From IMG/VR virus record IMGVR_UViG_3300032167_000002, positions 88,286 to 152,285 of that record: a stretch of DNA of 64,000 nt; one strand, written 5' to 3'. How positions within the stretch are numbered: position 1 is the first letter of the stretch; each line of letters opens with the position of its first letter. A program made the position numbers and the translations under genes. The stretch is from a virus (lineage: Duplodnaviria; Heunggongvirae; Uroviricota; Caudoviricetes). A model generated the notes under the pieces. That model had not been told where the DNA came from. It saw nothing but the letters and a program-made list of their open reading frames with translations, and ran no database searches. This document shows positions 10,911-38,766 of the stretch, in pieces.

Positions 10911-12392
10911 TTGGCAAATTATGTAAAATTTATGCGTGGTACTCCAAAAGCCTATGAAATGCTTTTAGCCAGTCCAGAGAAACCAAATGTTGATACTCTG
11001 TATTTTATTTCCGAAGCAGATTCAACTAATGCGGTTTTATATTTGGGTGAAAAGCTAATTGCGGGCGGAGGGGGAGCCGCAGGTAAAATTAGTTTAAGTG
11101 AATTAACTGATATTGCTTTAAGTACAGATTTAGCTGATAAGTCTATTTTAGTATATGATACTGCTTCTGGTAAATGGGTTGATTCTACATTAGAACAAGC
11201 TATTTCTGTTTTTATCGGTGCTAGTAAAGATGCCGCAGGTACAGCTGGACTTGTTCCTGCTCCTGGATATGGAGAAACCAATAAGTTTTTACGTAGTGAC
11301 GGCACTTGGGTATCTATTGACAGTTCAGAAGCAACTATTATCACTATTGAAAATGAAGATAGTGAAGTCATGCATCAAGAGTTAATTGACCAAACCACAC
11401 AAGGATGGTTGCCATGTGCTGGTGATATTATCATTATTAAAGATATTATTATCAATGATAAATGGCAATATACTTCTTATGTATATAATGGTTCTACATG
11501 GGCAGCCATGGATGGAAACTATAATGCTGAAAATGTGTATTTTGATTCTGATTTCACATTTACAACTCCAGTTGGTACAGTCACTATTCCTTCTACTGGT
11601 AGTAAAGTAGTGGATGCCGCAGGAATGAATATTAAGGATTTCTTAGCAAGTATTTTTGCAGAAGAACAAAATCCTACTACGACAAAACCCTCTATTGCTT
11701 TCACTAAACCTTCTAGTGATGCTTCTTATGAAGTTGGAACTAAAGTAACTCCAGAATATGCATTAAGTTTCAATAGCGGCTCTTATACTTATAATACAAG
11801 CACTGGTGTTACTGCTACTGGATGGAATGTTAGTGATGGAACAACCACTCGTACTACTCAAAGTGGTACAATGGAAGAAATTCAAGTTATTGATAATATG
11901 AATTATAAAATGACTGCAACAGCTACTTATTCAGATGGTATTATTCCTTCTACCAATTTAGGCAAGGAATATGCTGATGGACAAATTAAAGCTGGAACCA
12001 CCAGTTCTAAAACTTCTAAATCCATTACTGGATATAGACAATGTTTCGCTGGTGGAGATTCTACTGGAAGTGAATTAACTTCTGCTTTTATCCGAGACAA
12101 TTTAGCTGGAAAAGGCAACGGCGCTTCTAATAGAACTATTACTTGGGCCGCAAGTGATTTAGCTGGTATGAAGCGTTATATTATTGCGCTTCCTGTGAGC
12201 GGTGGTAAGAGCGTTACATCTGCAATTATTACTTCAAGTATGAATGCAGATGCTACTGCAGATTATGTAAAACAAACCGCAACTGTTGAGGTTGAAGGTG
12301 CAAATGGATATACTGCAGTCGATTATAATATTTGGATTTATGCACCTGCTTCTATTGCAAGTACAGAAGTGCATAGTGTTACAATTGGATAA
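10911..12392 (+). CDS. Tail fibre/structural protein (493 aa) with no amber codons. Contains the FLRSDGTWVSI motif common in phage fibre proteins.
   Basis: Intact ORF with RBS AAAGGAGAG and TAA stop. Confidence 0.6.
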   Translation: MANYVKFMRGTPKAYEMLLASPEKPNVDTLYFISEADSTNAVLYLGEKLIAGGGGAAGKISLSELTDIALSTDLADKSILVYDTASGKWVDSTLEQAISVFIGASKDAAGTAGLVPAPGYGETNKFLRSDGTWVSIDSSEATIITIENEDSEVMHQELIDQTTQGWLPCAGDIIIIKDIIINDKWQYTSYVYNGSTWAAMDGNYNAENVYFDSDFTFTTPVGTVTIPSTGSKVVDAAGMNIKDFLASIFAEEQNPTTTKPSIAFTKPSSDASYEVGTKVTPEYALSFNSGSYTYNTSTGVTATGWNVSDGTTTRTTQSGTMEEIQVIDNMNYKMTATATYSDGIIPSTNLGKEYADGQIKAGTTSSKTSKSITGYRQCFAGGDSTGSELTSAFIRDNLAGKGNGASNRTITWAASDLAGMKRYIIALPVSGGKSVTSAIITSSMNADATADYVKQTATVEVEGANGYTAVDYNIWIYAPASIASTEVHSVTIG

Positions 12393-12406
12393 GGAGGACC
12401 TGAGAT

Positions 12407-13924
12407 ATGGCTGTAATTAAAAAAGACGGCAACTTCATGGGCCTTCCTATGAATGTTGCGAGAGGTAATCCAATTCCTCTTGATAAAAGTGAAATTTGGT
12501 ACTCTTATGATGCAATGGAATTATATGCGCAAACCGACCCTGTCGCATATGTAGGTCAGATTCTAGGTTTAGTAGACGAGGCCGCAGGCACCGCTACTGC
12601 GTATATCATTCTAAATACCGCAGGTGAACTCCAAGAGATTGGAGCATCTGTTGATATTCCATCTTTAAAAGGAGATAATTCTTCTATTGTTATTAGCAAT
12701 GAAATTATTGCCTTAAAGAACTGGGGTGTGCAATATTATAAATATGTTGCCGCAACTGAAACTACTGAAGCTGAATATGTCCTTCAAGTCGTTGACGATG
12801 AGAATCCTTGGATTAGTGGTTTAGAGCCAAAAGTCGCCAGCGAAAATGGACAAATGGTATTAGCTTGGTATCAACCAAACCCAACTACCATTGAAGGTTT
12901 AGGCAGTTAGTTATCTTCTTTACAAACTTCTGTAAGCGATTTACAAAAGAATACTTATACTAAAACTGAAGTTGATGAGAAGATTGCGGATGCTGGTCAT
13001 TTAAAGCGAATTATCGTTAATTCTGTGGATGATATTAATGTTAATGCCGCAGATGCTGACCAATATATTTATATGGTATTAACTTCTCCTGAGGATGAAG
13101 CTGACAAGTATGATGAATACATGGTTATTATCTATGAGGATGAAACTGGTACAGAAGTTCGTTATGCTGAAAAAGTTGGTTCTTGGGAAGTTGATTTAAG
13201 TAATTATGTTACTAAAAATGCGCTACAAACCGAACTTAATAAGAAAGTTGATGCTGAAGAAGGCTATTCTTTAATTTCTGATGAAGAGAAAGCTAAATTA
13301 GAAGGCATTTAGGAAGGCGCGCAAAAGAATTATATTACATCTGTTGATTCTACAAATTTTGCAGTTGAAGCTGGTAAGCTTTTATTGCAAGGAATTACTG
13401 TTGCACAAGTTCAAAATTTACAATCACTTTTGGACGCGAAGGTAAATAAAGAAGAGGGTAAAGGATTATCTTCTAATGATTTCACAGATGAACATATTCA
13501 AATTATTCAAGGTAATACTGCTAATATTCAAACTCAAGGTAATAAAATTATTACCATTGAAAATGTATTGAATGATACAGAGATTGATGGTATTGTTACT
13601 CCTGGTTTGATTACTAAAGTAAATAATTTAAGTGTTGCTGTTCAAACTAACACTGATAATATTTCAACTAATGCAGGAAAAATTTTAACCTTAGAAGGTA
13701 CGGTAGCAACGTAGGGTAATGCTATTACTTTATTGCAAAAAGATGTTAGTGATTTAAAAACTAAGGTAAATGCAATTGATTTAACTAAATATGTTACTAC
13801 TGAAATTTTCCAAGCTACAGTTGGTAACCTTGAAGAATTACAACAAAATCAAAAGACACTTCACACTCAGGTAAAAGAAATTCAAGAAGCTATTACTTGG
13901 GGTGAAATTAAAATTAATGCTTAA
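12407..13924 (+). CDS. Tail-fibre protein with coiled-coil and fibre repeats (about 505 aa). TAG at 12908, 13310 and 13712 read through. Contains a GKGLSSNDFTDE tail-fibre-repeat-like motif.
   Basis: Four frame-2 track ORFs (12407..12910, 13025..13312, 13385..13714, 13733..13924) are joined through TAG only. The real stop is TAA at 13922. RBS AAGGAGGA. Confidence 0.65.
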
Positions 13925-13941: not shown

Positions 13942-15663
13942 ATGGCAGATACTAATGTTATCACTATTGCTGATAATTCTCAGATTAAGTTTTTACATGG
14001 TTTACAAACCGCATTAGATGCTAAGAGAACCGCCCGTTCTGGCGAAAGCGGCACTTTCTACTTAACCAATGATACTCATAGATTATATGTTGGTTTAAGT
14101 GATGGTAGCATCGAAGCTGTTAATGAAGGTATTACTACTTACGCTACCGTGGAGGTCTTACCAACTGCAACTGCTTTAAATGCTGGTCAATTCGTTTATA
14201 TTACAGCTGATTCTATTTTAGCTGTTTCCAATGGTCAAAATTGGGTTCAAATTAATGCCAATACAGATACCAATTATACTTATGGCGGTCTAGTCACAGG
14301 AGAGCAGACAGGAACTGTTACTGTAACAACTACTTTAACAGAAATTGGTGAAGGTAATAGAAAACCTTCTTTCGCTTTCTCTTTAACTGGTAAAAATGGT
14401 ATTACTATTGTTGAAGGTACAACAGATGGTACTATTGAAGTATATGGTACTAAATTAGCCAGCGAAAATATGGCTCAAGATAATGCTGCAAAGATTAAGT
14501 TAGTTAATGAAGCTGGCGTACAGCAAAGTGCAGTTGTTATTCAGGGTGGTACCAATGTTACTGTTAGCGAAGATAATGGCGTAATTGGAATCACTGCTGC
14601 TGACACTAAATTAGATGGTAACACTCATACAGCAACCGCTCATGCTTGGGACCCCAAAGATGAGACCAATAAGCCTGGTGGATTTACTGTAACAGTTAAA
14701 GATACTGCTAATAGAAGTTCTAGTAGCACATTTAATCCTGCAATTAAATATGGTGGTAGTGGCACTTCTACTGCTAAGTTCAGCAATGGTACTGCGACTT
14801 TAGATGTATATACTAAAGCAGAAGTTGATGCTTTAAGAGCAGACTTTGACGCAATGGAATATCAGGGTGTTGTTAATAGCATTCCTACTGGTTCCATTAA
14901 GAAAGGTTATACTTATAAAGTTGGTCAAGCTTTTGATGTAACAGTTAAAACCGATACTGGTACTGAAGAGATTACAGTACAGCCTGGTGACTTATTGATT
15001 GCAGAAGGCACTGAAGGTACCAATGGATTCTTAACTACTGTACAATGGGGTTATGTTCCTTCTGGTAATGAAGATACCACTTACTCTGTTGGTTTATTGA
15101 CTCCAGCAAATGGTGGTGGTATTCAATTATTAGAAAAGAAAACTGGCACTACTACTGGTACTAATGCTGGCTCTATTTCTGTATTAAGTGGAAATTGTAT
15201 TACTGTAAGTCCAAGTTCAGACACTGCTTCTAAGGCAATGTCACTGACTATTAATCATAATGCGGTAAGTACTACTGACCCAGCTAGAGATACCACTGGT
15301 ACTTTAAATAATCCTACTCTTGGCACCGATTATGTTGCTAAGTCAGAAGATATTGTTATTATTGATGCCTCTAAGGGCGAAAATGGTATTGATAGAGACA
15401 ATTATGGTCATGTACAGAAAGTATATACCAAGACCGTTAAAGTCTATGATACTAATGCTCGTTTAACTGGAATGACTTCCAGTGTATCTAGTGACACTGC
15501 TAAGACTAAGGCTACTGTTTCTATTAAGGGTCAAGTAACTGGCTCTAAGAATCAAAAGAGTGAGCAAACTGCTACTTTCTATGTTGAGTCTACTCATAGT
15601 AACTTGCAGGTAAGTAGCTCTGGCTCTAGCGTTCAGATGTCTCTGGTTTGGGGCACTTTCTAA
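13942..15663 (+). CDS. Virion structural protein (573 aa, Thr/Gly-rich) with no amber codons, followed by a strong terminator. Possibly an abundant tail or fibre component.
   Basis: Intact ORF with RBS AAGAAAGGGGAAAA and TAA stop. Terminator hairpin about 70 nt downstream. Confidence 0.55.
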   Translation: MADTNVITIADNSQIKFLHGLQTALDAKRTARSGESGTFYLTNDTHRLYVGLSDGSIEAVNEGITTYATVEVLPTATALNAGQFVYITADSILAVSNGQNWVQINANTDTNYTYGGLVTGEQTGTVTVTTTLTEIGEGNRKPSFAFSLTGKNGITIVEGTTDGTIEVYGTKLASENMAQDNAAKIKLVNEAGVQQSAVVIQGGTNVTVSEDNGVIGITAADTKLDGNTHTATAHAWDPKDETNKPGGFTVTVKDTANRSSSSTFNPAIKYGGSGTSTAKFSNGTATLDVYTKAEVDALRADFDAMEYQGVVNSIPTGSIKKGYTYKVGQAFDVTVKTDTGTEEITVQPGDLLIAEGTEGTNGFLTTVQWGYVPSGNEDTTYSVGLLTPANGGGIQLLEKKTGTTTGTNAGSISVLSGNCITVSPSSDTASKAMSLTINHNAVSTTDPARDTTGTLNNPTLGTDYVAKSEDIVIIDASKGENGIDRDNYGHVQKVYTKTVKVYDTNARLTGMTSSVSSDTAKTKATVSIKGQVTGSKNQKSEQTATFYVESTHSNLQVSSSGSSVQMSLVWGTF

Positions 15664-15728
15664 TTTGAGGACAAAAGGTATTAAGAAGATTATTTCGATT
15701 TTTAATTAAAAATAGAGGATAATCTAAT

Positions 15729-15767
15729 AGGTGGGAAGAAGATTATTCTTCTCACCTATTTTTTTGT
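15729..15767 (+). terminator. Rho-independent terminator: AGGTGGGAAGAAG / CTTCTCACCT stem followed by a T-run.
   Basis: Inverted repeat followed by ATTTTTTTG, read directly. Confidence 0.6.
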
Positions 15768-15796
15768 TTATAAAGGAAAGAAAGGAGTTTAAATAA

Positions 15797-18700
15797 ATGA
15801 GTGAAAATTATGGCGTAAAATTTATTCCCGTCCGTGGTTATGACAGTAAGATTCAGCGTGCTGAAGTAAAAGATGGATGGATTTATTTTGCTACTGACTC
15901 AGGTAAGATTTATGTCGATAGCCAGGGCCAAAGAACTATTATGGGTTCTGCGGGCGCCGCAATTTACTATGGTGAAGTTGAGAAACCAGAAGTAAATGAA
16001 GATACGGGCTATGCAACACTTCCTAAGAGCGCTGTTAAAGGCGACCCTAAGAAAGGCGACCTAATCTTAAATTCCGATGGCGGTTTCTATAAAGTTGAAT
16101 TAATTGGTGAAGAAAACTATACTTGTGAATTGCTTTCTATTAGCGGCACAGGCGGTGGTCCCGGTGTTTCTACTACTACTCGTCCATCAATCACTTTAAC
16201 TCTTGACAATACTAACTTCATTAATGGTCAAGAGGCTTATTTCCATATCCATGCAGAGTCTGCTTTAGAGGCAGATGGTGTGACTCCTGTAGATACTACA
16301 TTGAATGTTGTATATTCTTTGGGTACTCGTATTTCCGACGAGGTTATTGATAACTATACTACTCAAACTCGTACTTATAAGACTGGTGAATCTGACTATG
16401 AGGGCGTTCCCGGTATTATTGATGACTATATTGAAATTGGTTCTCTATTAAGAGAGTCCTCTTCTAGTGTGTTGTCTGTTTATGTTCAAGGTGCAAATCA
16501 TGACGAAAAGAGCCGTACTAGAACTGTTGACTTATCAACTTCTGCATTAAAGTTATCTCAAGTTTCCGGTTATAACCCAGCTACTAGATATCCTACTTCT
16601 GGATTCCAAATTAAGTGCGGAGTTGTTGGTTCTTTATCTAAGGTCTTAGATTTCTACTATGATGATATGAATACTCCTGCTGAAACTCGTGTTATCGAGG
16701 CTAACGTAGCTAATAGTACTCAGACATTTACAGTAGGTACAGACAAAGCAACTCACGGATATCACACTGTTCGTATTGAGCTGTGGCAGAACACTGGTAC
16801 TTCCAGTAATCCTAAGAGAGGCTTAGGAGTTGCTCCACTACAGTACGAAATCGCAGTTATTGAAACAAGTAACGCAAATGCTAAACCAGTAATTTGGTTG
16901 GGTGATTATAAGGCTGAATATTATAATTACGATACTATTCAAATCCCATTCTTAGTATGGGACCCCGCAAATACCAACTCTACTAAAGTGCATTTGTATA
17001 AAAATAATATTGAATTAGAAAGCTCTCCTCGTGAAGTTAAGGATTTCTCTAAATTTGATTATTGGGAAATCGCTGATGCAGAAATGAATGCTTTAAATAG
17101 CTATCAAATTTCTTGCGGCGAGACTGATGAAAAATTTGTAAAGAGAGAAATTGAGTTTAAGGTTGTTAAAGACCCTAATCGTGATATGACTGTTGAGCAA
17201 GCAGGATTGTTATTAGACTTCTCTGCTACTGGACGTTCTAATTCTGAGTCCGCAGCTAAGAGACAGTTGTGGAGCTACACTTTGAATGGTGAAAAGAAAA
17301 ACGCCATTTTCGAAAACTTTAACTGGTATAATAACGGTTGGATGATGGATTCAAGCATTAACCAGTCTTGTTTAAGAATTAGTAATGGTGCTAGATTAAC
17401 TATTCCATTCCAGCAGATGGTATTTGCTGCCGGTGTTAGTGGACAAGAGTCTCACACTGTTGAAATGCAATTCCGCATTCGCAATGTTCAAAAATATGAT
17501 AATTTAATTACCAATATTACTCGTTATCAAGGTGACGGTGTTTGGTATGAAGCTTTTAAAGCTCAAAAAGATACTGGCTATTCTAACTATGATGCTTACT
17601 TACAAGCAACTTTAGACCCAGACACTTATGATAATTTAAAATTCCAAACTGTTGAAAAGAATATTAACATTACTAATGTTGCCGCAGGTCTATATGATTA
17701 TGATGCAACCAATGTTAAAGCTACTGGTTTCTGCGTAGGCACTCAGGACGCTTTCTTCTCAAACGGTGAAAATACTGTTAACGTAAACTTCGTTGAAGAT
17801 GAGTTAATTAATTTAAGTTTTGTATATCAAGATAGCTTAAAATATTTATATATCTATATCAATGGTGTTATTACTGGTGTTATTAAGTCTACTGACCCTG
17901 ACGCCTTTACAATTAATAGTGGAAACTTTGTTTTTGATTCTAGTAATTGTGACATTGATTTATATAAATTGAGAATTTATAATTCTGATTTAAATGTTAA
18001 TCAGATTGTACAAAATTTCTCTGTTGACCGCAAGAACGTAAAAATCTTTGACCAAAGTAATGCTTATGCATTGGCTGAGGAGAATAATAACTTGAAAGAG
18101 TTCCAGTTCTCTTATGAAGCTATGCTAAGATATAATGAAGCTCATCCTAATGAACCTTTGATGCCTTATATCATTTACGATACTGGTAATGCTACTTTAC
18201 CATATAGTAAAGACGATACTAAATACATTAGTGTTGAATTTGTTAATACCAATTTGGAAAGAGCATATGCTAATGGTGAATTAGAGACTTTGGCTCGTGC
18301 CGATGGCTTAATCGCAGAAGGCGAAACTGATAGTGATAAAATTAAAGAAGGCGTTCGCTTGTACTACAAGCATCATTGCCCATCTTGGATTTCCACTATG
18401 ACTTCTGGAGATAAGGTTGAATTTGCTGTTCAGGGTACTTCTTCTGAGTTCTATCCTCGTCGTAATTACAAGATTAAGACTAAGGTAGAAGGAGAATTTA
18501 ACTGGAAACCAATCGCAGACTTTACCGATAAGGAGAAGGCTGAATTAAAACCAGAAGAGCTTGAAAAATTAAATGCTGAGAGCGGTTTATATATGGAAGA
18601 AGATTCTTTAAATATCTTCTTAAACCGTGGACCTTATGCTGAAGTTTTCGTTTCTGATAAAGCTAAGTTAGCACAAGATAGTAAATATCTTGGACATGAA

Positions 18701-21700
18701 GAGTGTCGTTGTGCTGATGGTTGGTATATGAATAACTATACTAACGGAACTGATAGATGGACTATGAAAGTTGACTATATGGAATCTTCTGGTTCTTATA
18801 ATGCAGGTTTCGCATCTATGGTTGGTAATGGTTATACTAAGCATCCTTTACAAGACTATTTAGCTTTATTAAATAATACCAATAAATTGGAACCTGTTGT
18901 TGATAGCTCTGTAATTAAGGGTATTCAATGGGGCGATTATCGTACTTCTCTATTGGGCTTCCCAGTTATGGCTTTCCAAAAGACTGGTTCTGGTGATAAT
19001 GCTAAGTACACTTTCATCGGTTTTTATCGTATGCTATTGGATAAGAGCTCTACTCAGGTCTTAGGATTTAAACCTAGTAAGAAAGTTACTAATAAGTTAT
19101 TCCCTAAGGGTTTAAATGATGAAGGTAAAATGGAATATAAGGCAGTACGAGACGTAGCAGAATGTTGGGAGTTCTCTAACAATGCTCGTGGTTATTGCTC
19201 TTATCGTGACCCATGGAGCCGTGTTGAATTAAGTTTCACACCTCCTACTAATTCCACTGTATCTAATGGTGGTTACAATGCTAATGAAGCTCCTGTTGTG
19301 GCTAATAGCTTTGAATATCGCTATCACAGCAAGGATGATTATATTGATATTCTTTACAACTTTAAGCAAGCTACTCAAGGTGAACTTGATGAAGTTGCTG
19401 AAGAGTTAGGAACTGGTACAATTCCTAAGGGCGATTTAGAGGCCGGTGCTAAGGCATTGCTATCTACTCATACTAACTGGGAAAAAGTATGTAAATGGTT
19501 GTGGAGTACTAATCTTGATGCAGTTGTTTCTCAAGGTACTTACTCTAAAGTTCCTGTCGGTGATACCGCATATGAGCCTGGTGTTTACTATGTAGTTGAT
19601 GGTGATTCTTACGCTATTAGTAATGCCGACTTTGATGAAAACACTACCTACTATGTAAAGAGTGAAGTCAACTATGATGTTATCTCTTTAACTGCAGAGA
19701 CTTATATTTCTGGTAAATATTACATCTTAAATGCTGATGGTGAATATGTAATTGATGCAAGCACTTTTGATGCAAATAAGATTTATTATGAGCAGGTTAT
19801 TGAAGACCGCTACATTCCAGTTAATGTATGTCCTGCTGAGTATGTATATGTAAAAGGTAAGTTCTATGTATTAACTGCTGGTGGAAACACTGTAAGCACT
19901 ACTGATGATGTTTATGCATTATCTAATGAAGAATTTGCTGGTGGTACTACTTACTACGAATTTAAAGATGATACTCTAGACACTCTAAATTCTCGTTTTG
20001 ACTTACTGATTGCTCCAGTAGATATTGAGAATGCTACTTATGATGCTAATACTCAGTATTATACTTGGCATGGTATGGACTATGATATGAACGACGCTGC
20101 TAATGGTGTTGTTATTAACCCAGGTCATCCAACCGGTGCAGTCCGCGCGGTCGAAACTCCTTCTCAAGAGGATTGGGCTAAGGGATTATATTATGTAGCA
20201 GCTCCAAAAGAATATGCTGGTAAGGTTTATACTCACGATACTAAAGAATATCGTGCTGCTAAATTTACTAATGAATTTGAAGACCACTTCGACCCTGAGT
20301 ACGTTGCTACTTACTTCGTAATGACTGAAGTTATGGAGTTATACGACTCTCGTGGTAAGAACTGTATGATGGCCTCTTGGGGTCCTCATGAAGCTGGTGG
20401 AGAGTACATCTGGTATCCAATCTTCTATGATATTGATACTCAGTTAGGTATTAACAATACTGGTATTCCTTCATTCGAATTCAATGTTGATGCTACTGAA
20501 GCAGGTAACTTCTCTACTTCTGATAGTATCTTGTGGAACAACTTCTATAAGTTCTTTAAAGACACTTGGATTGTTCCTAAATATAGAAACTTAAGAGGTA
20601 ATGATACTCCTAAGTTTGCTAAATTATTAAATGCAGACGGAACTAGTAAAGCTCCTTTACAGTCTGTTGATTATATTGAAAAGTGGTATACTTTTAATCC
20701 TGATGCAACTAATAATATTGCTTGTGAAGGCGAGCGTCCATTATTAGCTACTAATTTGGATATGTACTTTAAGTATATTACTATTTGTAACCCCAAAGCA
20801 AAAGAAGAGGGCGTTGCTCACTTGGGCGGCGAAGGTTCTGGTGGTGCGTTCGCTGAACCAGACACCGGCACTTACTTCTATGCTTTACAAGGTGACCGTT
20901 CTCAATCTCGTCAGCAGTTCGTTGGAAATCGTCTTGAGTACATTGACTCTTGGTTGACCCAAGGTAACTATGCTCGTGGTGGTGCGAACCGTCTATGGGG
21001 TCGTATTTCTGCTAACAACAGAAGTGACCTTGACTCTGATATTACTGATGTTCACTCTGATAAATGGACCAATAGCGTTGATGACCCATATTGGGTAAAC
21101 AATGTACCTTTTGGAACCAAGACTCACGAGTTTGACTCTGAATATTGGATTGAACCTACTCCAATTCGAAGCGCATATGTTACTGCTGGTGATGACAGTA
21201 TGAACTATCCTTCTAAGAAATATGATGGTATCCATAAGATGCAATTCGTATTAAATGAATTGGAAAATGGTATTAAAAATAGTGACAACTATCCTGAACA
21301 GTTGTTATATATTTATGGTACTAACCAAATGTCTGATTTCGGTGACTTAAGTAAGATGTATTGGACTGAGTTTAAACTTGAGGGTAAGGCTGATAAGCTA
21401 ACTCGCTTGAAGCTTGGTCATGATGGTACTACCATTGACTATAAAGATAGTAATGCAAGTACTAAGACTGAAATTGGTTGGTATAATAAGAAGTTAAATG
21501 GTATTACAGTACCTACTTCACTACCTCTATTAAAAGAAGTTAACTTCTGTAATATTGGTCTAGTAAATGAAACTGCTCTTGATTTTAGCTCTTCTGAAAA
21601 GATGGAAAACTTCAGAGCTACTGGTGCAAGTAACTTAACTTCTGTTACATTTGCAGATGGTGTTGCGTTAAATACTTTGTATTTGCCTGCATCCGTTGGT

Positions 21701-23848: not shown

Positions 23849-23864
23849 TAAAGGAGGATAAAAA

Positions 23865-24074: not shown

Positions 24075-24107
24075 TTTAATTATTTAATTAAATTATCAAA
24101 ATAATAG

Positions 24108-24130
24108 AGGGAGAGAGTAATCTCTCCCTC
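24108..24130 (+). other. Perfect 10-bp stem hairpin (GAGGGAGAGA-GTAA-TCTCTCCCTC) without a T-tract. Possible transcript-stability or attenuator element between genes.
   Basis: Read directly from the sequence. Confidence 0.4.
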
Positions 24131-24160
24131 GCAAATTTAAAGAAAGGATGATATTTAGAA

Positions 24161-26092: not shown

Positions 26093-26113
26093 TAACTTGA
26101 AAGGAGAGGTAAA

Positions 26114-26701: not shown

Positions 26702-26709
26702 TAGTTTTA

Positions 26710-26741
26710 GGGAGAGATTTTATATCTCTCCCTTTTTTTTA
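26710..26741 (+). terminator. Rho-independent terminator (GGGAGAGAT...ATCTCTCCC plus T8).
   Basis: Hairpin plus TTTTTTTT, read directly. Confidence 0.65.
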
Positions 26742-27716: not shown

Positions 27717-30134
27717 ATGAGTTTACAAGTATGGTTACCATTAAATAATCATATTAATAACCAAGGATTAAATACTATTCGTTTTAAAAGCTCAAATGTT
27801 TCTTACACTCAAGGTAAGTTGGGCTATTGCGCTAGTGGCACCATTCAAGGAACTGCCGCAGAATTAAATTCAACAGATGGTTTTTGTTGTAGTTTCTGGT
27901 GGAATATTGCCAATGGAGATAGCTATAATATTAAATTTCCTATTACTAACACAGGTATTGATGATATTTTTAATATGGCAAAAATGGATTATACTTCCAA
28001 TTATGCTATTAAATTACATTGCAATAATAACAAACCTCAAATGATTTGGATTTATGATACTCGTTCTACTTCTGGAGTATGGGAGCTTGGAACCTGGAAT
28101 CATTATGTTATTAATGTTAATAATGGAGATTTCGGTGTATAGGTAAAAGTATTTGTAAATGGAGCTTTAAAACATCAATACAATAGCGCTGATTATAATT
28201 TTACATTACGCCCTGGTACCATTAGTATTAGTGGAACAGCAAAAATGAATGATTTTAGATTATATGACCATCCACTTTGTCTAAAAGAAATTGATGAATT
28301 AAGTAGAGGTCTAATGCTTCATTATCCTTTACGAGATAGTACTTTACAAAGCACAACTAATTATTTATTGTATCCAACCCCTGGTAGTAGAGTAAGTGCT
28401 GGATGGGACTCTTCTTTACATCCAAATGCTATTAATGTATCTGGATTTACTGCAGGGTATAACAGTGGTGTTGATTCACCAACAATTGGTTATCATGCCT
28501 ATTGGAATGTTATAGATGACGTGCCTACAATGGTGTTTCCAAATTTAAATTCAGCATATAATTATAAAGGCCGTTGGTTAGGAATTTCTTCATGGGGTAC
28601 TGTTAATTTAGCGTAGGCGATTGGTAAAGGTAATAAATATACTATTTCTTTTGAAGCTAAAAGTGATATAAAAGGTAAAACAGTACAGTTTGGTTTATAT
28701 TATAGAAAAAATGGAGCAACTTCAAATAACTTCCATGATGGACAACATTAGTAGAGCTTAACTACAACTTGGAAAAAATATTCATACACTTGGACTCTTG
28801 GACAAGACGGTGATAGTTCTAATGTGGGAGCAGTATATATGTATGGTCATTATGGTATTGAAGGAACTGCTTATGTAAGAAATATTTAGTTAGAAATTAA
28901 TGACCATGCAACAGATTATGTTTCTGGTAGTAGAGAAGCTTCTAAGGTCTATGACTGTTCGGGTTTTGGACATCACGGTCGTGTAGTAGGAGCAGTATCG
29001 ATGATGCCAGATTCTAGTCGCAATAAATATTCTGCATACATCACAGATGGTCGTAGTAATTATATTGCAAGTGATACTATGATATTTCCAAAAGATAGTA
29101 TAACTATGAGTTGCTGGGTTAAAGGTAGTAACGCAGGATATAGTAATTATCATATTCCATTAAGCTTTGGTAGTGCTAATTATGAATTTTCATTGGAGGG
29201 AACGACTGGTAAATTCCGCGCTGGATATGTTATTAGTGGAACTCGCTAGTGCGTAACAACAAATGGTACTACTATTGATGGGAAATGGCATATGATTACA
29301 TCTACATTTGATGGAACAACTATTCGTAGATATGTTGATGGAATACCTTTAACATCTACTGCGGCCGCAGGTACTTTATCCGGTGGTACTGGTAATTTAT
29401 TGGTTGGTAATTATAATGGTACTACATATGGTAATAGTAAATTATATACTAGTGATGTTAGAATTTATGCTACAGCACTAGATGAACTATAGATTAAAGA
29501 ATTATATTTAAATGGTGCCACTGTAGATAATGGTGGTAATGTTTATGCTTATGAGTTCACTGAAGAGGGCGACAACTCAGTCTTTAAAGAAGGAGTAGTT
29601 GACTTTGAGAATTTTATTGAGTATAATATTAATAAGATAATGAGATATGATGGTGATTTGTGGGTACAAATTTTACATCATAATAATAGAGCTGGTACTA
29701 AGTATTTTACACCATCTAATGCCGCCAATCATACAGAAGAAGACTTATATAGTAGGCTTTATTTAACTGAATAGTTAAGAGGAGCTGATGGTGCATTTGA
29801 ATTTTTAGTTTTGCAACCTGATGATGATGCAGGTACTGTATATAGATGGATTCAAACAAATAATCCAAACAATACAACTTCTGTAACAGGATTTAAAAAC
29901 ATTTCTAATATGAGTGGAGGATTAGTAAAATGCTCGGGTAATACTCATTGGGCAATTTCAACCTCTACTGGAAATTGGTGGAATGCAGTGGGATGCTGGA
30001 CCGCTTATAATGGAGGCATTCCTGGATTTGGTAAAAAAACTATTAAAGGGTCTTTAGATGTGTATGTAAAGTTAGATAAAAGAACAAGCTTTTTAATCGA
30101 CTCTATTGAAACTCAAAACTATTATGAATTTTAA
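27717..30134 (+). CDS. Large tail-fibre/receptor-binding protein with LamG-like (concanavalin-type lectin) domains, about 805 aa. Eight in-frame TAG at 28140, 28614, 28749, 28752 (adjacent TAG-TAG), 28887, 29247, 29490 and 29772. Paralogue of 32793..35219.
   Basis: Frame-3 ORFs 27717..28142, 28245..28616, 29001..29249, 29292..29492 and 29811..30134 are joined through TAG only. The 28617..29000 and 29493..29810 gaps were verified codon by codon. LamG signature DFRLYDHPLCLKEIDEL / DVRIYATALDEL. TAA stop at 30132. Confidence 0.65.
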
Positions 30135-30445: not shown

Positions 30446-30453
30446 TAATTCAT

Positions 30454-30490
30454 AGGGGTGAGGATTTATCCTCACCCCTATTTTTTTTTG
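30454..30490 (+). terminator. Rho-independent terminator (AGGGGTGAGGA...TCCTCACCCCT plus T9).
   Basis: Read directly from the sequence. Confidence 0.7.
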
Positions 30491-30524: not shown

Positions 30525-32777
30525 GTGGCACAATTAAGAGATTTAATTGTTAATGGGCCTTCTCGTTTTCTTGGAGTATCTACATATAATGAAGATGTAC
30601 TTCTAAATAAAGGTGCAATTGCTTATGATGTTATTATACCAGGAGAAACCTTAACCTATAATTTAGGTACAGCAGATAACGCTTGGTTAAATATATATGG
30701 TGCAAACCTAAGAGCATCAACAGCAGTTATTGTTACTGGCAGTGCAGAAGCGACAGCCGCAAGTTCTGGAGCAATTCAAGTAACTGGCGGTATTTATGTA
30801 GCTAAAAAATCTTTGTTTGGTAGTGATATTTATTTAGGCTCAACATCTTATTATTTAAATGGCACAACAAGTAAACTAAATGGCTTAACAACTGCCAGTA
30901 CTATTACTTCTGGCGGTAATGTTGTTCCAAGTGAGACTAACAAAAAGAGCCTTGGTACTTCTAGTTTGCGTTGGGCTAACTTATATATTGTAAATGGTAA
31001 CGCTTCTGGCTCACTATCTGTGTCTGGAACTGTAACTTCTACTGGCGGTTTTATTGGAAATTTAACTGGCAATGTTGTTGGTAATGTAACTGGTGATGTT
31101 ACAGGTAATCTAATTGGTGTTGCTGATAAAGCTAATCGTTTAACCAAATCAGGTGGTAGTACTGATAGACCAGTTTATTTTACTACTGATGGAATTCCAT
31201 AGCCTACTACTTATCGTATGGCTGGCACTAATGTAACAGCTACAACAGGAATTGCGATTGGCAGTGCCACTAATACTGGTATTTGGTATGTTAATGATAC
31301 TTCTGGTATTCTTGGTATTAGTGATGGTGTAGCTATTGTAAATAAATATAACGACTCTTGGATTACTCAAATTTATCAAGACTATCGCACTGGTCAACTT
31401 GCGGTTCGTGGTAAAAATAATGGTACTTGGCAAGATTGGAGAGTTATTCTTGATGAAGATAATTTTACTAATTATCTTGATGGTCATTATAATGGTAAAT
31501 ATGTTTTAAAAACAGGCGATACCATGTCTGGCCCTCTAGTTATTCAAACCAGTGAAAATAAATTAACAATGAATACTAGTGGAAGTATTACTACTGAAGT
31601 TACAAAAAGCGGTGGATGGGCACGATATATTGATTGGAAATAGAAAAATACATCTAGTGATACTGCAAGCGTAAAAGCAGAAATGGGTGCCTATGGCGCA
31701 GGAGGAACTTTAAATTATTGGTATGTTGGTACTGGTTGGGAAGAAGAAAATACTTGGTTATAGGTTAATGCAACTGGCACCACTGTAAAAGGAATTCTAA
31801 ATGCAAAAGGTCATGTTTATTTAACAGGCTCTCACGCTAGTTCTAGTACTGGTAATACAACTCAATTAGTGTTTGGTACACCAAGTGAAAATCATGTCGT
31901 ATTATCTTCTAATGATAATGCATTAGTTATTAATCCAACTACTTCTTCCACCACAAATTAGATTGTTTTATATTTAAATAGTAAATCTAAATTCCCTAGT
32001 GGCTTAGACGTAGGCACAGCTTCTTCTTTTGCTTCTGATGTGAATATCGGTGGTAATTTACAAGTTACTGGCTCTATTAAAGGATTAAGTACTTTAGCCA
32101 TTACTGGCGCCACAACTTTAAGTAATACTTTATCTGTAACTGGAGCTGCTTCATTATCAAATACTTTAACTGTATCAAAAGTTACTACCCTAAACGGAGG
32201 TCTTATCGTTAGTGGTAGACCTTATGGCTCTGGTGATGATGAAGGTATTGTTGTTGCACCTGCAGCTAACGGATATGCAGGTATTACTTTAGGTAGTGCT
32301 TCTGGTATTAGAAGTACTCTATATTTAACACCAGCTGATAGAACACATAGAGCAGTTTGGCGTTACTATAATGGTACAACCAATTATGATGTTACGCATC
32401 CTGAAACTAGTGGTGAATTGGTGGTACATACCGCTGATACAGCCGCAGGTAATGCTAGTGTTCCCGTTTATATTGCTGCTTCTGGTGTCGCGACCGCAAT
32501 TACCTGTCTTGAACCTTCAAAAGGTGGTACTGGTAATACCAACTTAGTGAGTGGACGTTTGGTTTATACTGAGGCTTACAACGGTTCAGTCAGAATGACT
32601 TCTGGCGGCAATCATTATGCAAATGCTACTAAGGTTGCTATTAATTCAACTGCTGCCCCCACAGGAGCTTTCCATGTGCAAGGTGATACATCTATCAACG
32701 GAGCGATTACAGTTGACTCTAAGGTAAAATTTGTGTATAATAGTACCGATGAAAGTTTAGATTTTATATTTATTTAA
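30525..32777 (+). CDS. Tail-fibre shaft protein (about 750 aa). GTG start. TAG at 31200, 31641, 31761 and 31959. N-terminus (MAQLRDLIVNGPSRFLG) is paralogous to the N-terminus of 35239..38766.
   Basis: RBS AAAAGGAGTG. Frame-3 ORFs 30525..31202, 31218..31643 and 32040..32777 plus two sub-60-aa segments are joined through TAG. TAA stop at 32775. Confidence 0.6.
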
Positions 32778-32792: not shown

Positions 32793-35219
32793 ATGAGTTT
32801 ATTAATATGGTTACCATTACATGGTAATTTAGAAAACTATGGTTCTTCTCCAATAAAATTTAGTTTAAATACTACTGGTGGCGGTGTTGCAGCTGCCACC
32901 AGTGGTGGAAAAACAGATATGCGCTGTTATCAACGAACAGCTATTAATACAGTTTCTCATATTACTAGTGATTCCACAATTGATTTAAATAAAGATTTTA
33001 CTATGGCATGTTGGTGTTATCCAACCACTCCTGGTAATGCTACTTCTGCAAATGGAATTCTAACGAATCATAATCATTCTCATAATAGTGATAAAGGTAG
33101 TGGTTCAGGAATTACTTTAAAATATAGTGGTAATACAACTTGTTATATGAGTTGTAATACTTCTTCTTCTACTGGAAGAACATATTATTCATATTATGGA
33201 ACTACAAACATCTATGGAGCTTGGCATCACTTATGTTTAACCTATAAGAAATCTACTAAAACTTATCGTTTATTTGTAGATGGTATTTGCGAAAAGGAAT
33301 TTACTTGCGAGAATGTATCTGCTGCAAATAAATTTAATATATTTGATTGGTCTGTCGGGCATTCAAATAATGGGTCATATAGACCCGCCTGTAAAATTAA
33401 TGATGTGCGAGTATATGATGAATGTTTATCCAAAAGAGAAGTGAAATTATTAAGTCAAGGTTTAGTTTTACATTATAAATTAGATGGCGGAAATGCGAAT
33501 AATTTATTAACTAATTCTTATACGATTGGAAATAGACAAACCTCTTTTGATAAGGTCTATGGATTTCCTGTCTGTAGTGCAGATAATAGTGCAGGCACTG
33601 GATATAAAGATTTTGCTTCTTGGGGAGGACACTCTGTTTCTATAAATGAAGTATATACAGCAAGTTTCTTTGCTAAATCATCTACTTCAAGTACTTTAAC
33701 TATGTACTTTTATAATAATACATCTGGCGTGGTTCAAGTTTCTAATATTAAATCATCTGAAGGACATAATAAAAGCGGCAGTGATGGCAATTGTCCTCTA
33801 TCATTAACTCCTCAATGGAAAAAATATACAGTAACTTGGACTTTTGCAGCAAGCGGAACAACTACAAATAAAACCTTGCTATTTAGACTTGCGGCAGGTG
33901 GTAAATGTGATATAGCTTTACCAAAATTAGAAAAAGGTTCGATTGCTACCCCTTATTGCCCAGCATTAAGTGAAACATTTTTTAATGCTGCTGATGATTG
34001 TAGTGGATATGGTCGTAATGGCACAACAGTTGGTAATATTACTTTTAGCTCTGATACTCCACGCTATGCGGCAAGCTCTGTGTTTGATGGTTCAACCACA
34101 GGCATTAATTTACCAATTAAAGATTTAATGAAAGCAGTATTGAGTGATAAGTGTACTATTAATTTTTGGGTAAAAGAATCAAATACATCAAGTAGAAGTA
34201 TTTACTTTGGCGGTTATAGTGGTAGTAATTTTAATATTGAACAAAATGTAACATCTTTCCGAGTATATTGGAATGGTAGTCCAGATTTATCAGTAGGTAC
34301 AATTACTAATAACGAATGGGCTATGTGGACTGTTACAACAGATATTGCTACTGGTATTAAAATATATAAAAATGCAACTTTAGTAAAAACTCATACGGGT
34401 GCTCTTACTAATATTGCTTCAAGTTTTACAAGAGATTTTAATATTGGTAAAGATAGTAGAACTGATGATACAATGATGGAAGGTAAAATGTCAGATTTTA
34501 GAATTTATGCTTCTGTATTGTCTGCTACTGATATTAAAGACTTATATCAAACTGCAGCGTCAATAACTAAAGAGGGTTCTGTATAGGCTTATGAATTTAT
34601 TGAAGAGCCTGATAGTTTTGATATTAAAATGACTAAATAGGGTATGTTAAAAGCTGCTGACATTTCTGAAATTGGATATATTGGCGGTATGAAAGTTAAA
34701 GTGCTATCCGACAATAGTGCTTGGGCACGTATTCATTGGCTTGACGTGACTACGGATAAAACTTGGTTTACTGCTAGCGAAGTTGCCTTTTGCAATTAGG
34801 CTAATCGTTTTAGTCGAATGGGTTTAGTAGACCATTTTAAAGTAGATGGTAAATATGAGTTTATGTTAACTTATCCGTCTTTGTCAAATTCTTTATATAA
34901 TAGATGGACACAAACAAGCTCTCCAAATGCAAGTACTGTAACTGGTTTTACTGCTATTACAACAGCATGGAATAATCATAATGCAGGCATTCGTAAACAT
35001 GGTTCAGCTTGCGTCTATAACTGTGACACTGGCTCAACTTGGTTTGCTCCTATTGGACAGAAATCTGCTTGGGATAGTACTAAATTTATTCCTGCCGCAG
35101 ATGGCACTTCACAAACTGAAACAGAATTGTGGGTAAGAATTGATACATTACCCAACTTAACAAAAACTAGTATGCTTGATAAAGAATATTTACAAGCATT
35201 TAAGATATATGAAATTTAA
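32793..35219 (+). CDS. LamG-domain tail-fibre/receptor-binding protein (about 808 aa), paralogue of 27717..30134 (MSLLIWLPL... N-terminus, NDVRVYDECLSKREVKLL and DFRIYASVLSATDIKDLY LamG signatures). TAG at 34584, 34638 and 34797.
   Basis: RBS TAAGGAGGAG. Frame 3 ORFs 32793..34586 and 34818..35219 are joined via TAG-only segments. TAA stop at 35217. Confidence 0.65.
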
Positions 35220-35238: not shown

Positions 35239-38200
35239 ATGGCACAAGTAAATGATTTACTCGTCCTTGGAAAAGCTAATTTTTTAAATGAGATAACTTC
35301 TTCTCAATTATTAAGAGCCTTTGGCGGTATTGCAGTAGATAGTTCAACTGAAGAATCTACATCTTTACCTTATTTTTTAGGTATTAAAGCTTTTGCTGAT
35401 GGTGGCAATGTTGTTTGGTCTAGTCCCACGAATACAGCTAATGTAATTAGACTTAATGCTTCTGGAACTTGGCCTATTAGTATTAGTGGTCTTGCCGCAA
35501 AAGCAACCGCTGATGCAAATGGAAGTACTATCACTTCTACTTATGCGAAGTTAAAATCTTATAATGATATGATTCATTCTACAAATGAATATACATTTGC
35601 ATCTCCGGCTTATTCTGGAGCCATTTGGATTAACTATCGAACTGCAAGTGGAGCAACTGATGGTAATATTACTACTTATAATTTTGGTAATGGTAAAGGC
35701 GGAACTGCAGGAGTTACTCTTGTGGCAACAACTTTTAATGGCAATGCTACCAGCGCTAATTATGCAACTTCTGCTGGTAATGCAAACACTTTAGATAATA
35801 TTGATTCTACTGGATTCTTAAGATATTACAATAGTAATACTGCAATATCATCTACTGAAGTTGTTAATACTCCATCTTATGTACATACGGTTAGTACAAC
35901 AGGTGGAAATATTACAACATCTGTGAAACCCTCTGGCATGAACAATGCATGGGGACTTATTCACTTACATACTCATACTGGTAATTACGCTACCTAGTTA
36001 GGTTTCGGTGGCACAACTGGAAATTTATATATGCGCAATGCTTATAATTCTGCAACTTTTGGTAGTTGGAAAACTATTCTTGATTCTGGAAACTGGACAA
36101 GCATTGTCGATGGAAGATATTTAAAATTATCAGGCGGAACAATGACTGGCTTAGTGTCATATAAAACCACAAATTATACTTCTACTCCAATGGCAATATA
36201 TGATGACGGAACAAATTATGGACATAGCTTAGTTATTGGTGCTGGCGGCACTACTTATATTGGAGCTGGTGAGGCTGCTAGTACTTTATATTCAACAAAA
36301 CTAAAAGTTACTTCTACTGAGGATTTAATTCTCGGTGCAGACAGTAATATTAGATTTCATACGAATGCAGATAATGCAACCACCACGAATGGAGTAACTC
36401 TTAATACCTCCAATTATTTTTATCCATAGACAACTAACACTGGTAGTGTTGGTACTTCTGGTAATAAATGGGGTTCCATGTATGCCACAACCTTTTATGG
36501 AGCTTTAAGTGGTAATGCTACAACAGCTAGTGCTTTAACTCCGATTACTACAAATGATTTAGCTTCTAGTAGTACGACTAAAAGACGCATTTGGTTTTGT
36601 TATGATAATAATACAACAGGTCGACCTGCTTATGATGATAGATTTACAATTCAAACTTCTACTGGAACATTATTTGCTCCAATTTTTAGTGGTAATTTAA
36701 GTGGTAATGCAACAACAGCAACTACTGCCAATGCCTTAGCAAGTACTGGTTATGGTAATGGTAATTTTACTTGGTTTCAAACTTCTGGAGAGTTCGCTGG
36801 CAATAGCGGATGGGCATCTTATTTAGTTTCTAATCATGGAGATGGCTCTAGTTATTATCATTAGATTATTGCTATACCATTTTGGGATCCTCCAAAATAT
36901 CGCCGCATGGAGGGTAATACTAGTACCGTTAAAGGCTGGTATGATTTTATTACTGATGAAAATTATACTACCAAGTTAGATGCTCGATATTACACCGAAG
37001 CAGAAGCCGATAGCCGTTTTGTAAATGTAACTGGCGATTCCATGAGTGGAACGTTAAGTTGGAGCGGAAATATTTCAAGTTTAAATTTCCGCACTGGACA
37101 TAGTGATTATGATGGTGTAATTAGTTATCAAACAAGTGGTAATGAAGCTATGTTATTTACTACTAAAAACGTAGTTACGAGTTTTATGTTTGTTAATGGT
37201 GAAGACACTATTACTAATATGGCTGCTGATAGATGGACTAAAATAACTCCCGGTTTACAAATTAAAAATAATTGTGTTGCGATTGGTAAATTAATTGCTA
37301 ATGGTAGTACTCCCAGTTATAAACTAGAAGTAGCTGGAATGACATATTCTTCAGGTCGTTACTTATCTGAAACAGTACCTTCTTCTTGGATTGATGGTTA
37401 GCGTTATAATAACGGTGCTTATAATGTAAATACTTATTCTAATGATGGCAGCTATAATCCTTGGATACGTGCAACTAATAGTCATGCTAATGTTGCTAAG
37501 TGGTTTAGTTTTGGTACATTAGGCAAACAATTTTATTGGATTGGTTCTACTACGAGTCGTACTGAAAATAGTTATGATAAAGGTATGTCATTTAATGTTG
37601 AATCTGGTTTATTATATGCTCCAATTGTTGGTGGCGATAGAATTTATACTGGCTATGATGCTGGAGTAACTGGCTCTGTATCTTGTTCTAATTGGTTCCG
37701 TTCAAGTGGCGCAACAGGTTGGTATAATGCTTCTTATGGTAATCATTTATACCCAAATACTGTAACAGGTTATGGCGGTTTTATGATGTATGGTAATGTT
37801 AGAGGTGGATATGAAGGCATTATTCTTGGTAATAGTACTAGTTATATGACATTGATGTCAAGTGACCCTCATCAAGGATTGTATAATGAAGCAAAAGGAC
37901 GTTGGATTATTTATTATAATAAAACTAATAATCAAACTTCTGTAAATGGCGCTTAGACTTCAGCAACAGCTTTTCCATTTACTATTTTTGGTGCAACTTA
38001 TATTGATGGTCGTTTGGTTGTAAAAGGCAATGGTTCTTCTTATAATGAAGGTATTCGTGTTTTACCTGCATCAAATGGATGGTCTAACTTATTCTTCTCT
38101 GGAACGAATACTGTAGAAGGCACTCATGATGGCGGTTGGTTAATCGGTCGTAGGGGAACAGCTGGAAGTACTTATGGTGCAGTTGGAGATTTCTGTATTG

Positions 38201-38766
38201 AAAATAATAATAGTGTTGGAAGTAATTTAACGTTAACTAAAGCTGGTATTTTAGTTAATATTGGACCAATCTTTGGCTATAGATATAAACAAACTAGTAA
38301 TGGCGCTGCTTTTATGTGGGATAAACCTGGTAGTAATTACACTGGTATGGGCGCTAATGATTCTAGTGACACTATTCAATTTAGAGCTTGCGATATCGCT
38401 GGTAATTGGGTAGATTATAAACAACATTGGAATTTCTATGGTGATTTATTTGCTTATGGCGCAAGATTTGCAAATAGAGGTACTTCAACATCTACTTCTG
38501 CTTATAGTGATTCAGCAGTTGAAATTCGTGAATACGGTTTTGGCGGCGCTCAATCTGATACTTGGGGAGTTGCTCCTCGTTTAAGTTTCCATTGGAGTGG
38601 ACGTGTTGCAGCGCAAATAGGTCTTGCTTCTAACGGTAAATTATATATCAATAATAATACTCAAGGAAGTACTACATTCTTACAAATTGTCGGTATGACT
38701 GGCTATGGTACTGCAGCCCCATCTGGTGCAGCTCCTGCTGGTTCAGTTTATTTTAAATATAGTTAA
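35239..38766 (+). CDS. Very large tail-fibre protein (about 1175 aa). TAG at 35995, 36427, 36862, 37399 and 37954. N-terminus is paralogous to 30525..32777.
   Basis: RBS AGAGAAAGGAG. Six frame-1 track ORFs (35239..35997, 36031..36429, 36478..36864, 36907..37401, 37585..37956, 38014..38766) are contiguous through TAG only. TAA stop at 38764, then a terminator. Confidence 0.65.

Follow-up and report, generated by a model that had tools for sequence, protein, structure and literature searches.

Uneven use of TAG as a glutamine codon among the tail and replication genes of a recoded tailed phage

In the gut phages described by Borges et al. (10.1101/2021.08.26.457843), which include the Lak, crAss-like and gemstone clades, early genes are compatible with the standard code and late genes are recoded, and selection is proposed to enrich or deplete the recoded codons by gene family. 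Dual-coded blocks have been described in crAss-like phages (Pfennig et al., Mgcod, 10.1101/2022.06.29.495998). Here, we analyse the in-frame TAG (amber) codons in a 64,000-nucleotide stretch of DNA from a tailed phage (Caudoviricetes; positions 88,286 to 152,285 of IMG/VR virus record IMGVR_UViG_3300032167_000002), hereafter called the window. Genes for tail, baseplate and fibre proteins, nearly all of them without annotation, form a module on the plus strand that starts at position 100 and extends to about 41.9 kb; the minus strand, from 41.9 to 64 kb, has genes for replication and nucleotide metabolism. Within the tail module lies a TAG-free island (13942..26701), which includes a giant gene for a protein of 2683 residues (15797..23848). 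All coordinates are window positions, and numbers preceded by an L denote loci on other contigs, of this phage or of its relatives.

With the phages of Borges et al., this phage shares the reading of TAG as glutamine, presumably in a standard-code host, a genome size of about 120–200 kb, and standard-compatible replication genes with recoded structural genes (here with the exception of the island). In the phages of Borges et al., a suppressor tRNA is detectable in a minority of genomes; among our loci, a tRNA(CUA) was found in one distant relative. In both cases, near relatives differ in code (codes 11, 15 and 4 in one clade). Among our relatives, whose contigs span 120–200 kb, the L002 contig is standard-like (63 genes, with 44 TAA, 17 TGA and no TAG stops), and the giant-gene orthologue L005:205-8067 is intact only when TGA is taken as a sense codon, with 20 in-frame TGA, 16 TGG and no TAG. 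L005 therefore appears to be TGA-recoded, and the clade has standard-like, TAG-recoded and TGA-recoded members. As in Agate phages, the most recoded genes include one for an endonuclease, which in our case is the GIY-YIG gene beside thyA (ratio of observed to expected TAG, O/E, 2.8). Agate also has large genomes, longer on average than those of phages overall, and combines standard, TAG-recoded and TGA-recoded members, among them a TGA-recoded lineage of about 127 kb. For our phage this is a likeness only and not a placement by terminase, as neither the window nor any fetched locus contains a terminase gene. There are also differences. Two putative lysis genes, 55141..56028 and the gene for an 864-residue endolysin of the relative L138, are TAG-free, whereas lysis genes were reported to be preferentially recoded. 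A TAG-free island is present within the tail module, several genes of the replication module, nucleases foremost, do contain TAG, and TAG density follows codon optimisation, including the avoidance of ATA, a link that is absent from the Borges preprint.

The multiple-code blocks of crAss-like phages (Ivanova 2014; Yutin 2021; Pfennig et al.) resemble our case in that the dual-coded set is rich in early functions; as the TAG-free genes of our phage are never terminated by TAG, they have the same reading in codes 11 and 15. Here, however, the boundary is off the strand switch and a dual-coded island of 12.8 kb is located in the plus-strand late module. Lucks et al. 2008 (PMC2266997) describe differences in codon bias that selection maintains among the genes of one phage, and rare codons that are avoided in some structural genes, both as seen here; in our case, the rare set includes a reassigned stop codon and no phage tRNA was found in the examined sequence of the lineage. 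TAG-recoded gut phages whose early genes are dual-coded are a known class, to which this phage belongs, and the coupling of TAG to ATA and AGG avoidance is a useful refinement and not a new kind of system.

We consider it fairly probable that the TAG map of this large phage reflects a mutation-selection balance with two separate filters. The main source of TAG would be the conversion of CAG to TAG by C-to-T pressure. The first filter, filter A, would be absolute and conserved in the clade, acting on DnaE, ligase, gyrase-like subunits, RNase H, a putative primase and DnaB; these genes would have to be readable in the standard code of the host, presumably being translated ahead of the suppressor, with TAG purged whatever their codon bias. 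The second, filter B, would be quantitative and lineage-dependent, TAG behaving like the poorest synonymous codon and being purged, together with ATA and AGG, from genes under translational selection; in this sublineage, it would cover the island, including the 2683-residue gene. The other tail, baseplate and fibre genes would be at an AT-biased mutational equilibrium, with TAG drifting to about 20% of the glutamine codons.

TAG as a glutamine codon and its distribution

TAG encodes glutamine in this phage. When open reading frames are called with only TAA and TGA as stops, short fragments merge into long frames, and the terminators of 51 genes comprise 39 TAA, 12 TGA and no TAG. Compared with L006 and L004, which are 87–89% identical, 19 of 25 pairs of a TAG with a non-TAG codon have CAA or CAG as the partner, and all seven TAG codons of the L006 and L004 giant genes match CAA or CAG in the window. 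In 57 RecJ orthologues, TAG is found at invariant glutamine columns (7 TAG and 50 CAR codons of 57 in one column, 6 and 48 of 54 in another). In an 885-residue, tail- or baseplate-like gene (6653..9310, with an N-terminal match to phrog_1887), L006 has CAA, CAG or TAG at four of the five TAG sites and AGA at the remaining one, and three of the five TAG codons in a 395-residue gene (9658..10845) are also TAG in L006. In all, five TAG sites are common to the window and L006, so the recoding is older than their split. Early attempts to assign the amino acid, from Gmk and RuvC aligned to PDB homologues and from the giant-gene sites of L001, fell on variable positions and were uninformative.

An earlier note on this DNA had reported that amber codons are abundant in fibre genes and lacking in some of their neighbours. 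For nine virion genes, an exact count gives the 47 in-frame TAG codons it had listed, in 7240 codons (0.65%); in-frame TAA and TGA are absent from these genes, with 71 to 173 present off-frame per gene. The nine genes are 100..2892, 3715..6678, 6653..9310, 9658..10845, 12407..13924, 27717..30134, 30525..32777, 32793..35219 and 35239..38766. TAG is also found outside these nine, three times in 26820..27704. For the 2683 codons of the giant gene the expectation is 17.4 TAG and the count is zero (P0 = 3e-8), or, by glutamine codons, none in 67 (P0 = 2e-7), while the TAG trinucleotides in its three frames number 0, 39 and 42. The absence likewise holds for 13942..15663 (0 of 21 glutamine codons, P = 0.008) and for 24161..26701 (0 of 27, P = 0.002), which is not one gene, as the note had it, but two. 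A fourth gene listed there, 10911..12392, is also TAG-free, but with only 11 glutamine codons in the gene this could be due to chance (P = 0.08).

The island thus defined comprises 4163 codons, with no TAG among 118 glutamine codons (P = 2e-12); when it is compared with the TAG-bearing virion genes, the Fisher test gives 5e-10. It opens with a 573-residue gene (13942..15663; ATA in 0 of 30 isoleucine codons), which is followed by a terminator-like hairpin of 15 pairs with a T-run (15726..15760) and by the giant gene, a member of phrog_14959 with BspA-type leucine-rich repeats at its carboxy-terminal end. Next come a 69-residue gene (23865..24074) with a hairpin downstream (24107..24130), a 643-residue gene (24161..26092; TAG 0 of 18, ATA 0 of 36, G-ending fraction of lysine and glutamate codons 0.55) and the closing 195-residue gene (26114..26701; TAG 0 of 9), behind which a terminator-like hairpin (26709..26733) and a run of eight T residues are located. 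With terminator-like hairpins after 13942..15663, 23865..24074 and 26114..26701, the TAG-free and TAG-bearing genes do not obviously belong to one operon, contrary to what had been claimed. The names "fibre" and "structural" are putative throughout, as almost no protein has an annotated family.

On the minus strand, the genes for the DnaE-type polymerase, NrdD, NrdG, the SF1 and DnaB helicases, Sak4 and a putative primase contain no TAG, and those for RuvC (three), Gmk (four), RecJ (two) and a Zn-finger protein (one) do, all as noted earlier; the small or unannotated genes 41939..42538, 44424..44678, 44678..45043 and 54619..55113 have one or two each. TAG is present in 8 of 25 minus-strand genes, and since each strand has genes with TAG and genes without it, the code change is not at the strand switch. 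When TAG among glutamine codons is tested for heterogeneity over all genes with 20000 permutations, G is 127, compared with a permutation mean of 54 and a maximum of 92 (p < 5e-5). Heterogeneity is also evident among the virion genes alone (p = 2e-6).

Codon choice and selection in the island

The TAG distribution is coupled to codon bias. Per gene, the TAG share declines as the G-ending fraction of lysine and glutamate codons increases (rho = -0.66), and in a logistic model of TAG per glutamine codon this fraction is a strong covariate (likelihood ratio test, chi2 = 60, p = 8e-15). Raw TAG density is uneven, as described above, but most of the unevenness is gone once the covariate is included: G falls from 127 to a deviance of 66.9 on 49 degrees of freedom (p = 0.045), and the TAG expectation for the giant gene is 2.3. 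The covariate is itself a mark of selection, not of neutral composition. The G+C content at third codon positions (GC3) was discarded as a covariate; its correlation is weaker (rho = -0.45) and it misleads, as the genes are alike in their G+C at four-fold sites.

In the island, ATA is used in 0 of 226 isoleucine codons and AGG in 0 of 39, with AAG at 55% and TTC at 58%, whereas the TAG-bearing genes have ATA in 51 of 538 isoleucine codons, AAG at 0.16 and TTC at 0.18. At four-fold sites, the island has 0.65 T and 0.02 G, and the G+C content of 0.14 is the same as in the fibre genes, so that what sets the two apart is codon preference and not base composition. The giant gene is AAG-rich, with TTC in 67 of 120 codons, and its codon usage is even over its whole length. 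The stretch free of ATA is longer than the island: from 10932 to 27704, none of 329 isoleucine codons is ATA, compared with 54 of 506 in the reference set (Fisher test, 6e-13), and this stretch takes in 12407..13924 and 26820..27704, each with three TAG.

When orthologues of the giant gene are compared, ATA and TAG climb in parallel. ATA and TAG account for 0 of 141 isoleucine and 0 of 67 glutamine codons in the window, 0 of 150 and 0 of 77 in L002, 0 of 132 and 3 of 69 in L006, 3 of 147 and 7 of 72 in L001, 16 of 176 and 16 of 74 in L135, 15 of 179 and 41 of 90 in L007, 30 of 177 and 15 of 66 in L003, and 32 of 142 and 25 of 44 in L011 (1779 codons). L137 belongs with L135 (16–17 TAG), and L004 has four TAG in its first 935 codons.

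Purifying selection acts against TAG in the island. When the island is compared with that of L006, 0.33 of the four-fold sites differ, with saturation at 0.51. Over the same divergence, 19 of 34 C-first leucine codons (CTR) have changed to T-first, while only one of 36 CAG codons has become TAG (Fisher test, 5e-7); leucine codons turn over and CAG hardly ever changes to TAG, so selection has kept the island poor in TAG inside genomes that were already recoded. Changes between AAG and AAA lysine codons are symmetric (32 versus 34, at 53% AAG), which means that the codon frequencies are stationary; the fibres are likewise stationary, at about 20%. Taking TTG/(TTG+CTG) as a neutral benchmark, the island has 0.87 and the fibres 0.96, with TAG/(TAG+CAG) at 0 and 0.72, respectively. 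Recent import of the TAG-free genes from a standard-code source, one of three explanations offered in the earlier note, is not supported by this combination of high C/T turnover at leucine codons with almost no change of CAG to TAG.

The best-supported reading of the island is that TAG is avoided along with ATA and AGG in genes whose codons are subject to selection for translation, and filter B would then be tied to expression level or translation efficiency. A second explanation of the earlier note, the avoidance of inefficient suppression in high-copy or very long proteins, survives in this modified form, without its length component, which is treated below.

The replication core and competing explanations

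Throughout the clade, TAG is excluded from the replication core. In 50 unique DnaE orthologues of recoded relatives, 8 TAG are found versus 297 expected (O/E 0.03), and over 59 recoded loci TAG makes up 8 of 2650 DnaE glutamine codons, versus 12.8% in the remainder of the loci. The exclusion persists at loci where DnaE has a GC3 of 0.15, AAG at 0.12 and no codon bias. Clade O/E is similarly low for ligase (0, with 0 versus 16.8 expected), a Band-7 protein (0.07), a gyrase-like subunit (0.10), RNase H (0.12), the putative primase (0.19) and DnaB (0.36). In the window, DnaE (Pol III alpha, 1320 residues; 49086..53048) has TAG in 0 of 39 glutamine and ATA in 4 of 106 isoleucine codons, and the anaerobic ribonucleotide reductase NrdD (46016..48223; clade O/E 0.56) has TAG in 0 of 30. 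Taken together, the TAG-free replication genes of the window contain ATA in 24 of 391 codons and TAG in 0 of 183, where 24.7 TAG would be expected if TAG tracked ATA (P = 3e-12). Genes that contain ATA but no TAG imply two distinct exclusions, an absolute one in the core and one of rare-codon type in the island. Filter A probably reflects timing. The suggestion of amber-gated expression in the earlier note accordingly stands for the replication core only, as an exclusion and not as gating; it does not apply to the block with the 2683-residue gene, whose orthologues carry TAG near the density of their neighbours.

At the other extreme are several genes, nuclease genes among them. RuvC is the top family, with a clade O/E of 4.15, followed by the GIY-YIG gene (2.78), 42617..43087 (2.74) and RecJ (2.32). 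The RuvC-like resolvase of the window (43155..43640), which was named from its motifs and in the earlier note, without a family hit, has TAG in three of eight glutamine codons. The two TAG of the RecJ-like DHH exonuclease (56068..57804) are both in the conserved amino-terminal domain. Positive selection for TAG in RuvC, RecJ and GIY-YIG was considered and is unproven: the RuvC share, about 0.45 of glutamine codons, is not above the near-neutral level of fibre genes in AT-rich relatives, and TAG is scattered across 40 columns of the alignment, none of which is a fixed gate site. The GIY-YIG nuclease gene (L016:6888-7880) is located about 3 kb past the right end of the window, just 5' of thyA. 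It has TAG in 9 of 19 glutamine codons, and 29 of its 31 orthologues are also rich in TAG; Rfam detected no group I intron there. Elsewhere on the minus strand, the guanylate kinase gene, Gmk (48309..48878), has TAG in four of nine glutamine codons and the YorH-like Zn-finger gene (61210..61869) has one, at codon 12.

Several points weigh against the explanation by two filters. Genes 12407..13924 and 26820..27704 are free of ATA and yet have three TAG each, so that the avoidance of ATA and of TAG is not perfectly coupled. The 195-residue island gene has a low G-ending fraction of lysine and glutamate codons (0.30), and 10932..12392 has a fibre-like GC3; in both, the zero is based on few glutamine codons. 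Gmk contains four TAG, where 0.4 are expected at its moderate codon bias (p = 0.0005), and no other gene departs clearly from the codon-bias model, although its clade-wide TAG load is unremarkable (O/E 0.82). Codon bias stands as a proxy for both expression level and timing, and the orthologue counts are raw and not phylogenetically independent. Finally, no suppressor tRNA was found in the examined sequence of the lineage: ARAGORN reported no tRNA at any of its loci and no Rfam family matched in 147 kb, a negative that is based on an incomplete genome.

Of the alternatives for the island, the one that fares best, though we think it unlikely, is that the terminator-bounded interval 13942..26701 is a distinct, separately regulated translation class in the tail module, made efficiently before or independently of amber suppression and hence TAG-free. 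The replication genes without TAG have the same lysine AAG fraction as the island (0.55), the terminator-like hairpins after 15663, 24074 and 26701 split the interval into three units, and the published model ties TAG-free status to early translation. However, TAG in island orthologues is at neighbour-like density: for the giant gene, the TAG share of glutamine codons is near that of its neighbours, with an overall O/E of 0.79 (0.23 versus 0.22 in L003, 0.46 versus 0.49 in L007). Unlike the replication genes, the island shuns ATA completely, which points to efficiency and not to code compatibility. It also sits midway in a same-strand tail module, and its short intergenic spacers contain no sigma-70-like promoter; a sigma-70 promoter scan of the island, with 97 hits versus 74 expected, was uninformative. 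If this alternative were true, the TAG density of each gene in recoded phages would quantify two separable constraints, pre-suppressor code compatibility and, for abundant late proteins, translational efficiency, and expression class could be inferred from sequence alone.

A mosaic history, in which the island, or conversely the TAG-rich fibres, was recombined in from relatives with another code or composition and has not equilibrated, seems improbable to us. The mixture of standard-like and TAG-recoded members and one TGA-recoded member (L005) in the clade would allow it, and the fibre genes, for which distant relatives have no homologues, are close in codon statistics to AT-rich recoded relatives. 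Furthermore, in L004 (L004:351-2141) the position of the 573-residue gene is held by an allele of 36–41% identity with six TAG, next to an 88%-identical giant gene, which suggests replacement between lineages of unequal TAG load. Against such a history, the island has remained TAG-poor and stationary across the divergence of the window and L006, with more than 50% turnover at comparable leucine sites. In addition, the TAG sites common to both place the recoding before their split, the four-fold G+C of the island is not raised and TAG terminates none of the 51 genes.

We give very little credence to an effect of length, by which imperfect suppression compounds over sites and very long reading frames exclude TAG. 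The giant gene, which is the longest complete one in the window, and the 1320-codon polymerase would fit, but 17 TAG are present in the neighbouring gene of 2547 codons, directly upstream on the same genome, giant-gene orthologues have 7, 15, 16, 17, 25 and up to 41, and the TGA-recoded giant gene of L005 has its 20 in-frame TGA. The TAG-rich neighbour and the TAG-bearing orthologues refute length avoidance, and freedom from TAG is not an intrinsic need of the giant gene. Chance or plain base composition, into which 10932..12392 taken alone would fit and to which the uptake of most of the heterogeneity by a single covariate might be credited, is the least credible explanation of all and is refuted by the island probability, the permutation test, the normal off-frame TAG counts of the giant gene and the fall of G-ending TAG as G-ending lysine, glutamate and glutamine codons increase.

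Surrounding genes and significance

The phage genome is at least 130–160 kb, and exact-protein look-ups match at least 23 contigs of up to 130–158 kb. They also place the first open reading frame of the window downstream of a 3091-residue tape measure protein, as the carboxy-terminal third (930 codons, 100..2892; nine TAG) of the 2547-residue tail-module protein, with the 17 TAG being those of the whole gene. The complete gene (L019, 1965..9608) is not codon-optimised, with ATA in 19 of 194 codons. Two adjoining paralogues of 122 residues follow, which differ sharply in composition: 2902..3270 has a G+C content of 0.19, a GC3 of 0.09 and one TAG, and 3285..3653 has a G+C content of 0.34, a GC3 of 0.33, no TAG and a strong hairpin downstream (3661..3689). 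A 987-residue virion gene (3715..6678; five TAG, GC3 0.175) precedes the 885- and 395-residue genes described above. The ATA-free stretch starts with a 486-residue gene (10932..12392, with an alternative TTG start at 10911) and a coiled-coil, fibre-like gene of 505 residues (12407..13924).

Beyond the island, the tail module continues with a 294-residue gene (26820..27704), which has a GTG start behind a ribosome-binding site, and a virion structural protein of 805 residues (27717..30134; phrog_26670), in which TAG makes up 8 of 22 glutamine codons. A fibre-like gene of 750 residues (30525..32777; four TAG) begins with GTG after a terminator (30452..30481), and is followed by a second virion structural protein of phrog_26670, with 808 residues (32793..35219; three TAG), and by a fibre-like gene of 1175 residues (35239..38766; five TAG) with a terminator downstream (38779..38817). 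The called reading frame 38790..38984 (in 38767..39005) is probably not a gene, as it overlaps this terminator and its run of nine T residues. Upstream of 39006, four copies of a GGTCC-containing motif are present, with no Rfam match above threshold.

The minus-strand genes include those for the DnaE-type Pol III alpha, NrdD, SF1 and DnaB helicases, AAA_24/Sak4, a dUTPase, the RecJ-like DHH protein and a lysozyme-domain protein (55141..56028; TAG 0 of 11, clade O/E 0.46). An 84-residue reading frame (44424..44678) has a G+C content of 0.18 and one TAG, amid replication genes of 0.34–0.40, and no orthologue in any fetched locus. The extended -10-like motif TGGTATAAT occurs nine times, versus 1.3 expected; three intergenic minus-strand copies (53082, 54601 and 61904) lie upstream of the DnaE, SF1-helicase and Zn-finger/DnaB units, respectively, which makes them candidate early promoters.

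A megablast search of INPHARED phages with 24 kb of sequence gave no match, and tblastn with the giant protein gave only remote hits, of less than 28% identity. When compared with PHROG, Pfam and PDB sequences, the island proteins matched only families of unknown function, plus the one BspA-type leucine-rich repeat. The AlphaFold model of the 573-residue protein, predicted from an alignment of 30 sequences, is all-beta and elongated, with a mean predicted local distance difference test score of 77 and a predicted template modelling score of 0.26; a Foldseek search of the PDB with this model returned nothing with E < 0.01.

No tRNA genes were found in the window with ARAGORN. In a distant relative, a tRNA with anticodon CUA is present (L195:315-390), with a U1.U72 mismatch and a G73 discriminator; its neighbours are tRNA-Leu(CAA) and tRNA-Cys, and the region is TAG-free and of early type. 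Pfam and PHROG scans, which covered part of the genome, contained no release factor 2 or aminoacyl-tRNA synthetase family. Loci L190:3329-8103 and L199:2-955 encode a phage sigma factor and RNA-repair and tRNA-maturation proteins, namely an RtcB-like protein, an RNA ligase and a Thg1-like tRNA-His guanylyltransferase. Beyond the right end of the window, four walks along viral contigs met with early and auxiliary genes only, all free of TAG. In the relative L138, which is about 95% identical in the gyrase-like gene, the endolysin (L138:13312-15906) combines M15 peptidase, lysozyme, amidase and SH3 domains and has TAG in 0 of 30 glutamine codons. The same relative has an NAD cluster (L138:1-9500 and L138:9668-11176) with PRPP (phosphoribosyl pyrophosphate) synthetase-like, Sir2, NAMPT, NAD synthase, YqeY/GatB-like and Band-7/flotillin-like genes, all of which are TAG-free and very strongly biased in codon usage (AAG up to 100%, GC3 up to 0.55).

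For annotation, code 15 is needed genome-wide, even though about 60% of the genes are identical in code 11. More generally, when a phage uses a reassigned stop codon unevenly, this need not signal gating or horizontal transfer. The hard, clade-wide exclusion in the core fits the published model of early standard and late recoded genes. The soft exclusion resembles ordinary rare-codon avoidance and would mean that amber suppression has a translational cost that is visible to selection. Comparing TAG with ATA, and TAG with the TTG/CTG ratio, offers a sequence-only test with which the two exclusions may be separated in other recoded phages.

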